Source: a virus (Duplodnaviria > Heunggongvirae > Uroviricota > Caudoviricetes). From it: a stretch of DNA of 4,152 bases. A program made the translations under genes and the position numbers. Shown piece after piece: positions 1-4,152 of this stretch (positions are counted from its first letter, which is position 1; the number at the start of each line of letters is the position of its first letter). The stretch lies in the IMG/VR virus record IMGVR_UViG_2877953467_000005, one strand, 5' to 3'. The notes under the pieces were generated by a model, which was not told the DNA's origin, searched no databases, and was given only the letters and a program-made list of their open reading frames with translations.

Positions 1-981
1 TTATAACGTCACTCCGCCTTTTAGTGGATTCAGAGCGACGGCATTTTGCAGATAGTCAGGCGCAAGGTGCGCATAGGCCATCGTCTGCTGAATGCTCGCA
101 TGTCCCAGAATCTGTTGCAGTGCGATTATATTGCCCCCATTCATCATGAAATGGCTTGCGAATGTATGCCGCAGGATGTGGGTTGCCTGATTGGGTGGTA
201 TATCAGGTTTCACTCTGCGTAAAATCCCGCAAAATTTCTCATAATCAACTTTGAATAATTTGGCGCTGGCCTCCTCTTTAACTTTTTTCTCCAGTTCCTC
301 AGAAATCGGCACGGTTCGCTTTTTACCGTTTTTGGTTTTCAGGAAGGTAACCCTGCAATTTGTAATCTGTGCTGGTTTTAGCGTGGCAACTTCCGTCCAT
401 CTTCCTCCGGTGCTCAGACATAAAAGCGCGACAAGTAAGTCATCACCAGCCAAAACATTTAACAGTTTTTCGATTTCTGCTTTTTCCAGGAACGTCATTT
501 CAGGGTTGGCCTCCGCCAGTGGCGGCAGTCCGTGAATTGGGTGTTGCCCGGAAAATTCATCCAATTGAATTAATTTTGTGAACATGCCGGATAATCGGTA
601 CATGTCACGGTTTATCGTTGCGGCACTGATACCATCACGTAGTCGCATGGAACGATAATCCATCAAAGCCCTTTTGCTCATCCTGCTCACTGGTATATCA
701 CCTATGCCGCTGATGGTTTTGAGTAGATGATTAAACTCTTTTGTTCCATGCTCGTGGTTTTGCCCGTGATATTTCCACCAGATGTCCAGCAACTCACTCA
801 AAGTCCGGCGGTCTGCTCGCTGGCCTCCCCATTCTTTCTGACTGGCATTGGCGATTGTGTATCGCTCAAATGCTAGTGCTTCAGCTTTTCTTTCGAATTT
901 CCTGCGGATGCGTTTTCCGTCGCGACCGCGAGGTCTAATGTCCACTTCATAGCGACCATCATCGAGCTTCTTAATTGCCAT
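1..981 (-). CDS. int: Phage tyrosine integrase (P2 Int-like), site-specific recombinase
   Basis: Minus-strand ORF 1..1011 (336 aa); stop codon is revcomp of 1..3. The internal Met at 979..981 begins MAIKKLDDGRYEVDIRP, which I recall as the P2 Int N-terminus, and is preceded by GGAGGG (revcomp of 989..994) with a 7-nt spacer, so 981 is the likelier start than 1011. C-terminal tyrosine-recombinase motifs are visible: HILRHTFASH and LGHASIQQTMAYAHL (catalytic Tyr). Confidence 0.92.
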   Translation of the reverse strand: MAIKKLDDGRYEVDIRPRGRDGKRIRRKFERKAEALAFERYTIANASQKEWGGQRADRRTLSELLDIWWKYHGQNHEHGTKEFNHLLKTISGIGDIPVSRMSKRALMDYRSMRLRDGISAATINRDMYRLSGMFTKLIQLDEFSGQHPIHGLPPLAEANPEMTFLEKAEIEKLLNVLAGDDLLVALLCLSTGGRWTEVATLKPAQITNCRVTFLKTKNGKKRTVPISEELEKKVKEEASAKLFKVDYEKFCGILRRVKPDIPPNQATHILRHTFASHFMMNGGNIIALQQILGHASIQQTMAYAHLAPDYLQNAVALNPLKGGVTL

Positions 982-1050
982 AAGAAAGCCCTCCGGCGCT
1001 GTATTCACCATCTTGGTAGCAAATGGTGAAAATGTAATCTTTATATAGAG

Positions 1051-1344
1051 TTAGCCAATCCTTTTCGCGGAGTGGTTGGACTCTGTTGACTCTGGCCCAA
1101 TGTGCGCGAGAGCCGGTGCGATTTGTCCTGCGTCCGGCGCGGTTTTATCTGTCATAAGCCATAGAGCATATTTTTGGAATGTGGGATGCATAGTGATTTT
1201 TAGCAAAGCTGTGCCACCGGGTTCAAAGTTTCCTCCTTCATATTTTTTAAGTGTGCTTAGCGGTAACTCTATGATTTCACAGAATTTTGATTGGCTTAGC
1301 CCTTCAGCCTCACGCAAGGCCTTAATCTTTTCGCTTAATTTCAT
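1051..1344 (-). CDS. C: Immunity repressor, P2 C-family, HTH DNA-binding protein
   Basis: 97-aa minus-strand ORF divergent from cox. An HTH-like segment (LSQSKFCEIIELPLSTLKKYE) and the C-terminal stretch FQKYALWLMT...APDAGQIAPALAH resemble P2 repressor C as I recall it. Size (~99 aa) and position between int and cox match P2 organisation. No strong SD upstream of the start. Confidence 0.85.
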   Translation of the reverse strand: MKLSEKIKALREAEGLSQSKFCEIIELPLSTLKKYEGGNFEPGGTALLKITMHPTFQKYALWLMTDKTAPDAGQIAPALAHIGPESTESNHSAKRIG

Positions 1345-1403
1345 TTGACATGGTGCCTATATAGGGACTAAATCCCCTCAAAACTGGAACCTATATAGGT
1401 TCC
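1345..1403. promoter_or_regulatory. Early promoter/operator switch region: consensus -35 TTGACA (1345..1350, + strand) plus two copies of palindromic CCTATATAGG (1356..1365 and 1390..1399)
   Basis: TTGACA lies immediately next to the C start codon and is oriented toward cox. A weak -10 candidate CTAAAT/TAAATC sits at about 1368..1374 (17-18 nt spacer). The 10-bp self-complementary core CCTATATAGG occurs twice, 34 bp centre to centre; the second copy is inside a perfect 18-bp palindrome GGAACCTATATAGGTTCC (1386..1403). Placement across the -35/-10 and just downstream matches the operator layout known for P2 Pe. Exact promoter elements are inferred. Confidence 0.55.
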
Positions 1404-1465
1404 ATTGATTTGAGAATAAACCAGCATCTAAACGGTTTTGAGTGGTTTAGAAAGGGCTGGATCCT

Positions 1466-1753
1466 ATGAGGGTACCATATATGGACGCTGAAAATTATGT
1501 GATTCAGTATCCGCTTGATGCGGTTCATGTGGATAAATTTGCTGATTTATTAGGGAAGCCAAAGACAGCCGTCAGTGAAATGGTGAAGGCAAATAAATTA
1601 CCAATTATTGAATTGCGTGATCCTTGCAAACCGAAGGCTCGTGCCGGTGAAAAATGGGTTTTCATTCCTGAGTTTAATCGCGCTGTACGTGAGGCGTTTT
1701 ATAACCGACCGGTTGAACAGCGTGATGCATGGCTTTTGTGGATGGGGTTGTGA
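1466..1753 (+). CDS. cox: Cox-like excisionase / early-operon regulator
   Basis: 95-aa ORF. The C-terminal half (AGEKWVFIPEFN...FYNRPVEQRDAWLLWMGL) resembles P2 Cox as recalled (AGEYWVYLPAWN...RPKEIRDGWLMWLGL). First gene rightward of the switch region. Alternative start at 1481 (MDAENYV) has a GAGGG SD at 1469..1473; the 1466 start has AAGGG at 1452..1456. Confidence 0.8.
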   Translation: MRVPYMDAENYVIQYPLDAVHVDKFADLLGKPKTAVSEMVKANKLPIIELRDPCKPKARAGEKWVFIPEFNRAVREAFYNRPVEQRDAWLLWMGL

Positions 1754-1755
1754 TT

Positions 1756-1926
1756 ATGAATGAGCCGCGTTGTATTGCTCAGTTATTGCGTAACGAAAGC
1801 CCCAGGGCGATTGACTTCACCATCACCCACGGTAAGGGGCGTAAGGGAATCATTATCCGCACCAAAAAACAGAGTCCGTTAAAAAAGGCTCTGACCTTTC
1901 TGAAAAGCCGGAGGGTATGGAAATGA
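1756..1926 (+). CDS. Small basic hypothetical protein (position of P2 orf78)
   Basis: ORF track gives 1729..1926. The ATG at 1756 lies 2 nt after the cox stop (TGA 1751..1753), and its own stop (TGA 1924..1926) overlaps the B start in an ATGA arrangement, consistent with translational coupling. The protein is K/R-rich (GKGRKGIIIRTKKQSPLKKALTFLKSRR). No family recognised. Confidence 0.5.
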   Translation: MNEPRCIAQLLRNESPRAIDFTITHGKGRKGIIIRTKKQSPLKKALTFLKSRRVWK

Positions 1927-2423
1927 CAGTGATGACGCTCAATCTCGTTGAAAAACAGCCAGCAGCTATGCGCCGGATAATTGGCAAGCATCTTGCCGTC
2001 CCTCGCTGGCAGGATACATGTGATTATTATAATCAGATGATGGAGCGCGAACGGCTAACGGTTTGCTTTCATGCACAGTTAAAACAGCGTCACGCAACGA
2101 TGCGTTTTGAAGAAATGAACGACGTCGAACGTGAACGACTGGTTTGTGCAATTGATGAATTGCGTGGCGCATTCTCAAAACGCCGTCAGGTCGGCGCAAG
2201 TGAGTATGCATATATTAGTTTTTTAACAGTCAGTCAGCGTCGTACTTTATTTATGCATGCGGGATTGACAGAAAAAGAATTCAATCAGCCGTACTGGCGA
2301 ATTAATGAAGAATCATGTTACTGGCGTGATGCTTTATTCCGTGCATTACGTGAATTATTCAGTCTGTTTGAGTATGCACCGACAATTCTGACGTCGGTAA
2401 AACCAGAGCAATATCTGCATTAA
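1923..2423 (+). CDS. B: Replication protein B (P2 gpB-like, helicase-loader-type)
   Basis: ORF 1917..2423. The start at 1923 (MTVMTLNLVEKQ...) has GGAGGG at 1910..1915 with a 7-nt spacer and gives 166 aa, the size I recall for P2 B. The sequence closely resembles P2 B from memory. Stop TAA at 2421..2423. Confidence 0.85.
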   Translation: MTVMTLNLVEKQPAAMRRIIGKHLAVPRWQDTCDYYNQMMERERLTVCFHAQLKQRHATMRFEEMNDVERERLVCAIDELRGAFSKRRQVGASEYAYISFLTVSQRRTLFMHAGLTEKEFNQPYWRINEESCYWRDALFRALRELFSLFEYAPTILTSVKPEQYLH

Positions 2424-2486
2424 ATAATTAACCAGAGTTTTTAACGCACTTAATCGTGCGGGGCTTCTTTTTGCCTGGAGAAAGTC

Positions 2487-2711
2487 ATGCATACAGTTTC
2501 TGAAAATCAGTGCGGTAAATACGCATTACTGCTGCAACAGGCCAGAACCGAAGCACAGGCCGACGCTGCGACGCGCTTTTCTTCTCATCTTGACGCCATG
2601 ATTCGCCACATCACAAAGGCGGAGTTATCCCGCGTGGAGATAGTTGAGCTGCTCAGTCAGGAGTCGGAAAAATTTCACAATATCGGATTGTCTCGCGGGG
2701 AGGTGCTTTGA
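2487..2711 (+). CDS. Hypothetical early protein (P2 orf80-like)
   Basis: 74-aa ORF with GGAG SD at 2477..2480 and a 6-nt spacer. Its stop TGA (2709..2711) overlaps the next ATG (TGATG). Position and size match P2 orf80. Confidence 0.7.
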
Positions 2712-3013
2712 TGTCCTGTTCTCGTTCGGTTGTATTACTGAATAACGCCTTAAAAATCGCCGTTATGAAAAATGGTGATTTGTCTCTTATTCAACTTGGT
2801 ATTGATAAAGAGAAGCGCGAAATAACTGAATCTGTTATCGCGATTTATCAGAGTGAATTAAACCTCCTGTCTGATGTGGTCAATTTACTTGTTAAACGCG
2901 CTGTATTCCACAAGCAAATTTCCTCAGTGGATGAACTGACAAAATTAACGACAGAACTCGCCAGTTATTGCGCTGATGAATTTAAGAAGCTGAACGACAA
3001 AAGGAGCTGGTAA
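2711..3013 (+). CDS. Hypothetical early protein (P2 orf81-like)
   Basis: ORF track starts at TTG 2708; ATG 2711 is preferred because GGAGG at 2699..2703 gives a 7-nt spacer. 100 aa. Stop TAA (3011..3013) overlaps the next ATG (TAATG). Confidence 0.7.
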   Translation: MSCSRSVVLLNNALKIAVMKNGDLSLIQLGIDKEKREITESVIAIYQSELNLLSDVVNLLVKRAVFHKQISSVDELTKLTTELASYCADEFKKLNDKRSW

Positions 3014-3237
3014 TGCCGGACAACGTGGATTTTATTCAGGAACAACAGGCTGAATTACTGGAGCGCCAGATTAACGCGGCAAGGGTAAAACATTGCGGTG
3101 TTTCTGCGCTGGTTTGCGAAGAGTGTGACGCGCCAATACCTGCTGCCCGTCGTGCGGCTTATCCGTCAGCCACGCGTTGTGTTTCCTGTCAGTCAGTCTT
3201 TGAAGCAAAAAACAAACATTACCGGAGAACGGCATGA
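3013..3237 (+). CDS. TraR/DksA-family C4 zinc-finger protein (P2 orf82-like)
   Basis: 74 aa with AAGGAG SD at 3001..3006. Contains CEEC-x17-CVSC, the CxxC-x17-CxxC signature of the TraR/DksA zinc finger. Stop TGA overlaps the next ATG (ATGA at 3234..3237). Confidence 0.8.
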   Translation: MPDNVDFIQEQQAELLERQINAARVKHCGVSALVCEECDAPIPAARRAAYPSATRCVSCQSVFEAKNKHYRRTA

Positions 3238-3361
3238 GTATTCGTATTGAAATTGGCGAACGTTATGTCGTTACCAGTGACAGCTTTCAGTTTATTCTCC
3301 ACGAGAAAAAGAGAGCGGAAAGCGGTAAAAACGCCGGTCAGGAATGGCTGGCGGTGGTTGG
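3234..3361 (+). CDS. Hypothetical early protein (P2 orf83-like), 3' end lost in assembly gap
   Basis: ATG 3234 with GGAG at 3223..3226. The N-terminal 42 aa (MSIRIEIGERYVVTSDSFQFILHEKKRAESGKNAGQEWLAVV) run straight into the N run. The ORF-track continuation to 3530 reads through the gap in an arbitrary frame and is not trusted. Confidence 0.6.
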
Positions 3362-3372
3362 NNNNNNNNNNN
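3362..3372. other. Run of 11 N: assembly or scaffold gap of unknown true length
   Basis: Literal n characters in the sequence. GC content and gene content differ on either side. Confidence 0.95.
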
Positions 3373-3510
3373 AACTTTTTGGGGTCAGTACATCGAGGGG
3401 CTTTCTGTTTTGGGGAATATTCTTCATTAAAAGTAGTGGATCACGTTTAATAAACTATGTTTATCATATACTTAAAAGTCAATCTTTAAAGTTGGACAGG
3501 TTGGTGGAAA

Positions 3511-4152
3511 ATGGAAAAAGTTATAATTGAGCTTGATAATCGTTGGGAGTTAGCTGATTTCGCGGTCTTAACGAAAGAGTATTTGCAGCTATATGGTTTT
3601 TTTTATGGCCTAAAAGGAGGATCAAGAGGATATTCAACAATGCCTTGGGAGGGTGGGCACAGTGTGGTGAACTTTTTTAGAGGGGCTTACAGTGCGACTC
3701 CACCAGATTTACGTCCTGTAGTGAAAAAAATTCAGTATGCCTCTCCTGGCTTTATTGAATTGTCTGCTCTTATTGATATCTCTTGGCAGATTGCTGAGTT
3801 AGTTACTGCTGTTGGTGGAAGTATTCTGGCTGCCAACAAAGTTTACGATCAGGTGATGCGTACATATCGACAAAGAGAATGGGCAAAGTTGAAATCAGAG
3901 AAGCTGCGTATACAGAATCAAATTAAAGAGATTGAACTTGTTTCTGACGCAGTTAAATCACTTGAATCTGTGATGGCACTTAGTGAAGAACAACGTAAAA
4001 ACTTGGTTCAACTATCGGGGGCAGATGAACTGGTTCAGTTAAAGATACTTTTGGCTGTTTACCGACGGTTATCTCCTCTTGTTGAGTTGCAAAACAGCGG
4101 GAAAGCTAATTTTTCTGCTGGGAAAAATAAAAATTTAAAAGCGTCCGATTAA
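3511..4152 (+). CDS. Hypothetical protein, 213 aa, no recognisable family; candidate accessory or cargo gene (possible superinfection-exclusion or anti-phage function)
   Basis: Complete ORF from ATG 3511 to TAA 4150..4152, coherent over 213 codons. The region is AT-rich (about 37% GC in two 60-nt samples versus about 52% in B). Weak SD GGTGG at 3503..3507. Predicted N-terminal globular part, a central amphipathic hydrophobic stretch (FIELSALIDISWQIAELVTAVGGSILAA) and a K/E-rich C-terminal region that looks helical or coiled-coil. No Walker A, nuclease or other catalytic motif recognised. Confidence 0.6.
   Translation: MEKVIIELDNRWELADFAVLTKEYLQLYGFFYGLKGGSRGYSTMPWEGGHSVVNFFRGAYSATPPDLRPVVKKIQYASPGFIELSALIDISWQIAELVTAVGGSILAANKVYDQVMRTYRQREWAKLKSEKLRIQNQIKEIELVSDAVKSLESVMALSEEQRKNLVQLSGADELVQLKILLAVYRRLSPLVELQNSGKANFSAGKNKNLKASD

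Follow-up and report, generated by a model that had tools for sequence, protein, structure and literature searches.

An 11-N gap that probably skips the interior of one P2-like prophage between cpxP and fieF

The closest free phages to the DNA described here are the Yersinia phages HQ103 and L-413C, Peduovirus genomes with 98.2-98.9% nucleotide identity to positions 1-3361 of the window (the whole 4,152-nt stretch that we analysed) and, for L-413C, a gene-by-gene match. The preliminary description had read this part as a P2-type early operon in which replication gene A should follow orf83. That expectation was borne out by L-413C and by closed E. coli relatives, in which the start of A precedes the orf83 stop by 11 bp, so that the two genes overlap.

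Among integrated relatives, the P2-like prophage of AR435 (NZ_CP029115.1, 226.4-264.7 kb) lies between cpxP and fieF. Its left part is 100% identical to the left flank of the window, whereas everything that AR435 carries from codon 42 of orf83 to the end of IS150 is missing from the window. Compared with HQ103 and L-413C, the prophage has gained a module of about 760 bp containing a 213-aa ORF (ORF213), an IS150 in the ogr terminator, an ISEc12 in A and an IS66-family element in the tail-fibre region.

A third described system bears on the 213-aa ORF. PD-T4-10 consists of two overlapping genes that mediate toxin-antitoxin-like abortive infection, with B as the toxin, and acts on T-even phages (Vassallo et al. 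2022, PMC9519451). Our ORF resembles that system in being a homologue of B and in its P2-like prophage setting, which is also that of several systems in that paper; it differs in having no A gene, in its partial coverage of the models and in lying at ogr-attP instead of at either of that paper's two hotspots.

The two flanks and their place in closed genomes

Left of the gap, the genes follow the divergent int-C / cox-orf78-B-orf80-81-82-83 order and encode P2-family proteins by Pfam and PHROG (Table 1). The integrase gene is 100% identical to AR435 (locus L002, 11550-12530, annotated as a phage integrase), where the RefSeq form is shorter, its 981 nt corresponding to window positions 1-981. 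Scanning of the whole 4,152-nt window revealed a single run of Ns, 11 bases at 3362-3372. The orf83 gene opens with an ATG at 3234 and continues for 42 full codons and 2 bases to 3361, where the Ns begin; these 128 bases match the start of the AR435 DUF5405/orf83 gene (276 bases, 91 aa) without a single difference, confirming the earlier observation that orf83 is cut by the 11 Ns after 42 codons. The fragment matches phrog_154, a PHROG family to which P2 orf83-like proteins belong, and Pfam DUF5405 below threshold. A 98-aa ORF called at 3234-3530 crosses the N run into DNA unrelated to orf83 and is a read-through chimera, an artefact, and exact look-up of its product returned no called gene on record. 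No A-like sequence follows the gap within the window.

Table 1. Features of the window; coordinates prefixed L001 and L002 are those of AR435 loci.
Feature	Position	Strand	Evidence
int, P2-family tyrosine integrase, first gene of the integrated prophage	1-1011	-	Pfam Int_N, Phage_integrase
Immunity repressor C (HTH)	1051-1344	-	Pfam HTH_3; C in L-413C annotation
cox (excisionase and early repressor)	1466-1753	+	Pfam Phage_Cox, E=1.2e-23
orf78	1756-1926	+	phrog_273, E=7e-41; orf78 in L-413C annotation
Replication gene B	1917-2423	+	phrog_235, E=2.5e-105; gpB in L-413C annotation
orf80 (DUF2732)	2487-2711	+	Pfam DUF2732
orf81 (DUF5405)	2711-3013	+	Pfam DUF5405, E=2.3e-34
orf82 (TraR/DksA zinc finger)	3013-3237	+	Pfam zf-dskA_traR
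orf83 5' fragment (42 of 91 codons plus 2 nt), left contig end	3234-3361	+	100% to L002 14783-14910 (AR435); phrog_154, E=3e-18
11-N scaffold gap	3362-3372		33,850 bp in most closed relatives; 15,298-21,939 bp in deletion variants
Last 20 bp of IS150, right inverted repeat ...GGGGTCAGTACA, right contig start	3373-3392	+	Identical to L001 12001-12020 (AR435)
Copy of the TCG duplication and 3' arm of the ogr terminator hairpin split by IS150	3393-3410	+	Folding with IS150 removed
Accessory insertion of about 760 bp relative to L-413C, from the ogr terminator to the attP P-arm	3404-4152 and about 12 bp past the window end (L001 12032-12792)	+	attP alignment
213-aa solitary ORF, last gene of the integrated prophage	3511-4152	+	PADLOC PD-T4-10_B, E=1.3e-34

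The preliminary description had called the DNA beyond the gap unrelated and AT-rich. It does not continue orf83, but it is far from anonymous, consisting of an IS150 end, an arm of the ogr hairpin and a module from the far end of the prophage, and it is only moderately AT-richer than the DNA to the left (GC 0.38-0.43 versus 0.44-0.49). The window shows only the terminal 20 bp of IS150, whereas AR435 carries the full element, 1,443 bp long and flanked by a 3-bp TCG target duplication. This duplication and the terminal inverted repeat ending in ...CAGTACA identify it as IS150 of the IS3 family. The junction of IS150 with the hairpin, as seen in the right flank, occurs in 73 closed genomes among 5,426 complete E. 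coli genomes, and IS150 is multi-copy in the closed relatives that carry it.

Folding with IS150 removed yields a terminator-like hairpin directly after ogr, with a 16-bp stem, a free energy of -28.3 kcal/mol and a z-score of -7.2, homologous to the hairpin that follows ogr in L-413C. IS150 sits in the loop of this hairpin (L001 10553-12040; window 3373-3410) and splits the ogr terminator directly upstream of the 213-aa ORF. The two sides of the gap are asymmetric: no IS sequence lies at the end of the left contig, against 20 bp of IS150 at the start of the right one.

In AR435, positions 1-3361 and 3373-4152 are each matched at 100% identity, with strand and order conserved and 33,850 bp between them. 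The interval holds the rest of orf83, A, a helicase gene between A and the portal gene, the late genes (portal, terminase, capsid, lysis, baseplate, tail fibre, sheath, tube, tape measure, U and D), ogr and IS150, with an IS66-family insertion in the tail-fibre region. Exactly this spacing was found in 12 of the 20 IS150-bearing closed genomes that were among the matches listed for both probes; in the remaining eight it was 15,298 bp (n=5), 16,665 bp (n=2) or 21,939 bp (n=1).

The closed relatives also carry the attachment sites of the prophage, a 47-bp core present as a direct repeat, one copy after cpxP and one before fieF; int marks one end of the prophage and ogr the opposite end. The attL core (L002 11387-11433), which would lie just outside the window after cpxP, and the attR core (L001 12863-12909) differ by one mismatch (CATGATG versus CATGCTG). 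The same core is present in the attP of L-413C, which also has the Int arm repeats in common with the prophage; the canonical 27-bp att core of P2 is absent, the integrase using this different core of 47 bp. Both limits of the window itself are stop codons, that of the first prophage gene (int) at its start and that of the last gene at its end. The 47-bp core overlaps the hairpin of the cpxP terminator, such that integration regenerates that terminator.

Gene A, the tin/old site and insertion elements in the prophage interior

Gene A of AR435 is split by an ISEc12 of about 2.6 kb (L002 15048-19913). The A::ISEc12 junction was detected in 74 closed genomes, versus 73 with the IS150 marker, and the genomes listed for the two are the same ones; because marker and junction co-occur, relatives with the IS150 marker of the window retain orf83 together with the 5' portion of A. 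Whatever the gap holds, the prophage is probably defective, A having already been split by ISEc12 in the IS150-marked lineage. A is intact in EC2. The site between A and the portal gene, known as tin/old, is occupied in AR435 by a gene for an 827-aa DEAD/DEAH helicase (L002 20153-22636, minus strand), which matches PDC-S28, a candidate single-gene system in PADLOC, along its entire length (E=0).

Three further genomes have window-like ends, on the int side and on the ogr-ORF213 side, together with internal IS-associated deletions. SCEC020007 (15,298 bp) has lost the segment from the ISEc12 in A to the IS66 element. EC2, which has no IS150, has lost the terminase-to-T region beside ISEc12, leaving about 12.2 kb between the flanks. 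The draft genome GCA_052037505.1 (locus L005, 601-9860) contains another P2-like remnant at the same site, with different hotspot cargo and with most late genes deleted; its order is IS fragment, orf80-83, a 272-aa ORF, A, an Rv2179c-like exonuclease, a HIRAN protein, a 179-aa ORF, D, ogr and ORF213. In all three, orf83 is retained and A survives at least in its 5' portion; none fuses orf83 to the IS150/ogr end, and no observed deletion variant resembles the window. The 33,850, 21,939, 16,665 and 15,298-bp series and the independent EC2 variant (loci L002, L013 and L020) make this prophage a clear case of stepwise IS-driven decay.

Possible origins of the 11-N gap

We consider it probable that the 11-N gap is a scaffold join with a placeholder, skipping the interior of one P2-like prophage. 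A draft E. coli assembly would have held the two prophage ends at cpxP/fieF on two contigs, later joined in the correct order and orientation: a left contig with attL-side DNA and the genes from int to codon 42 of orf83, and a right contig starting inside the right end of IS150 and carrying the last gene of the prophage. Ordering the contigs against a reference without the prophage, in which cpxP lies next to fieF, would be expected to produce such a join, and the join would skip the rest of orf83, A, the cargo of the tin/old site, every late gene, ogr and the greater part of IS150. The 11 Ns would be a placeholder carrying no estimate of size. The source strain would have an intact orf83, and A would be present, probably disrupted by an IS as in its relatives; with the interior skipped by the join, the shortened orf83 and the missing A would reflect the assembly, not the organism. 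We infer that the interior persists in the source strain and that a minimum gap of fixed size accounts for the 11 Ns. Ragout, a reference-guided scaffolder, presumably writes 11 Ns as its minimum gap, for which literature searches yielded no confirmation.

Multi-copy IS elements are a classic cause of breaks in short-read contigs, and the start of the right contig is explained because IS150 is such an element. Two observations count against a scaffold join: IS-linked deletions do occur inside this prophage, and the left contig ends (3361/3362; L002 14910/14911) in single-copy DNA devoid of IS bases, the first repeat break to be expected (A::ISEc12) lying 1,433 bp further on, which hints at a strain-specific event at the contig end. 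A repeat lying behind the left contig end was rejected for AR435-like genomes, in which the next 600 bp are single-copy. A repeat break could arise at this position if a second P2-like prophage were present in the source strain. Comparison with L-413C, L005 and SCEC020007 revealed no identity or mosaic boundary at the left breakpoint.

The literal join was sought directly. A 1,153-nt query spanning the gap found the flanks within about 1.08 kb of each other in 0 of 5,426 complete E. coli genomes, and a search for flank ends 11 bases or 0-30 bases apart returned 0 matches in collections of viral, species-representative genome and metagenome contigs (a control confirmed that an N in the junction pattern matches a literal N). 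Truncated orf83 was thus contiguous with the ogr-side end in none of the 5,426 closed E. coli genomes and in none of the three contig collections. The preliminary description had offered two options. That A had been replaced or deleted in a remnant element gained no support among the 5,426 closed E. coli genomes; that the gap hides A comes closer, although the several kb then envisaged become 15-34 kb in closed relatives, the whole interior of the prophage.

A real deletion, in which recombination took place between a second IS150, inserted in orf83, and the one in the ogr terminator, or in which IS150 made an adjacent deletion, seems unlikely to us. It would leave int-C-cox-B-orf80-82-orf83'-IS150-ORF213, with the gap hiding only about 1.4 kb of IS150, and hence a non-replicating and non-packageable remnant that retains immunity, int and cox, both att sites and the accessory ORF. 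Such an event would account for a right flank that opens with an IS150 end, as well as for a left contig that ends in single-copy DNA with no repeat to explain its end, but the left contig carries 0 bases of the left end of IS150, compared with 20 of the right end on the right contig, and a 140-nt probe for the predicted junction of orf83 codon 42 with the IS150 left end matched 0 of 5,426 complete E. coli genomes. Deletions mediated by IS150 are frequent in E. coli, which favours this reading in general terms, and the prophage itself has several natural IS-associated deletion variants, the one at L005 included; yet the known deletions in the IS150-marked lineage begin at the ISEc12 in A and not in orf83, and the 74 A::ISEc12 genomes, which match the 73 IS150-marker genomes in all sampled cases, retain orf83 and the 5' part of A. 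That the same gene order constitutes a mini-P2 of about 5.6 kb, formed by an IS150-mediated deletion of about 32 kb, is decidedly unlikely. Were it so, the element would be excisable by virtue of int, cox and both att sites, would keep P2 immunity and would have a solitary PD-T4-10B-like gene as its sole payload, the prophage being reduced to an immunity-plus-defence cassette.

A truly short gap, in which an illegitimate deletion fused codon 43 of orf83, across about 11 bases, to a point some 31 bp from the right end of IS150, is very improbable: it draws on the literal length of the N run, whereas the junction with 0-30 bases is absent from the viral, genome and metagenome collections and has no counterpart within about 1 kb in closed E. 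coli, no mechanism readily explains a deletion endpoint 31 bp inside an IS end, and a unique short junction would normally assemble free of gaps. Least credible of all, and refuted by the position of the 213-aa ORF, is a gap of a few kb containing A, which does come after orf83 in P2-type phages, with the 213-aa ORF as tin/old cargo between A and the portal gene (Q): in every genome seen the context of this ORF is ogr-(IS150)-ORF-fieF, with the ogr terminator before it and the attR core and fieF after it, which also disposes of the earlier proposal of cargo downstream of A, and the tin/old site of the closed-relative prophage is taken by the PDC-S28 helicase.

If the 11 Ns are indeed a scaffold join, taking the scaffold for continuous sequence would wrongly assign the 213-aa ORF to the tin/old-type cargo and lead to the call of a defective P2 remnant lacking A. 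This calls for caution among readers and in automated callers of islands and hotspots, the actual locus being in that case an ordinary IS-riddled prophage, either full-length or partly decayed.

The accessory module between ogr and the attachment site

To place the right-hand module we took IS150 out, fused attR with attL at the core and aligned the attP so reconstructed to L-413C. It matches L-413C on either side of the segment of about 760 bp, with 94.8% and 99.0% identity, and because of this two-sided alignment the 213-aa ORF is an accessory insertion and the last gene of the prophage. A chromosomal origin of the ORF was ruled out, attR lying downstream of it and the segment being an insertion relative to the attP of L-413C. 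The ORF is present as an exact sequence in 7,893 blocks of the assembly collection.

The ORF product matches three PADLOC PD-T4-10_B models with E values of 1.3e-34 to 3e-19; the best match spans profile positions 139-346 of 353, and another model is matched over positions 28-231 of 244. It had no match in Pfam or PHROG and no tblastn match in 50,697 phage records. An overlapping upstream A (antitoxin) gene of the PD-T4-10 type is absent, the ogr terminator and a 116-bp spacer occupying the upstream position, and the small ORFs near the 213-aa ORF have no PADLOC match. The ORF therefore lacks the two-gene PD-T4-10 arrangement, and by its sequence resembles single-gene accessory or defence cargo. 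Outside the question of the gap, this solitary PD-T4-10B-like gene in the ogr-attP interval is the one point of biological interest, and a mild one. The interval between ogr and the att site is not mentioned as a cargo site in the main papers on P2 hotspots (Rousset 2022; Vassallo 2022, PMC9519451).

Relatives of the ORF form a family of solitary proteins of 209-235 aa in Gammaproteobacteria. An Enterobacter homologue adjoins an Ogr/Delta remnant, and homologues elsewhere are also solitary. The Vibrio homologues, at 46-47% identity (loci L018, 1-9654, and L019, 1-6709), stand in long rows of small same-strand genes of unrelated functions. These rows resemble an integron cassette array, which suggests that the gene may move as a single-gene cassette.
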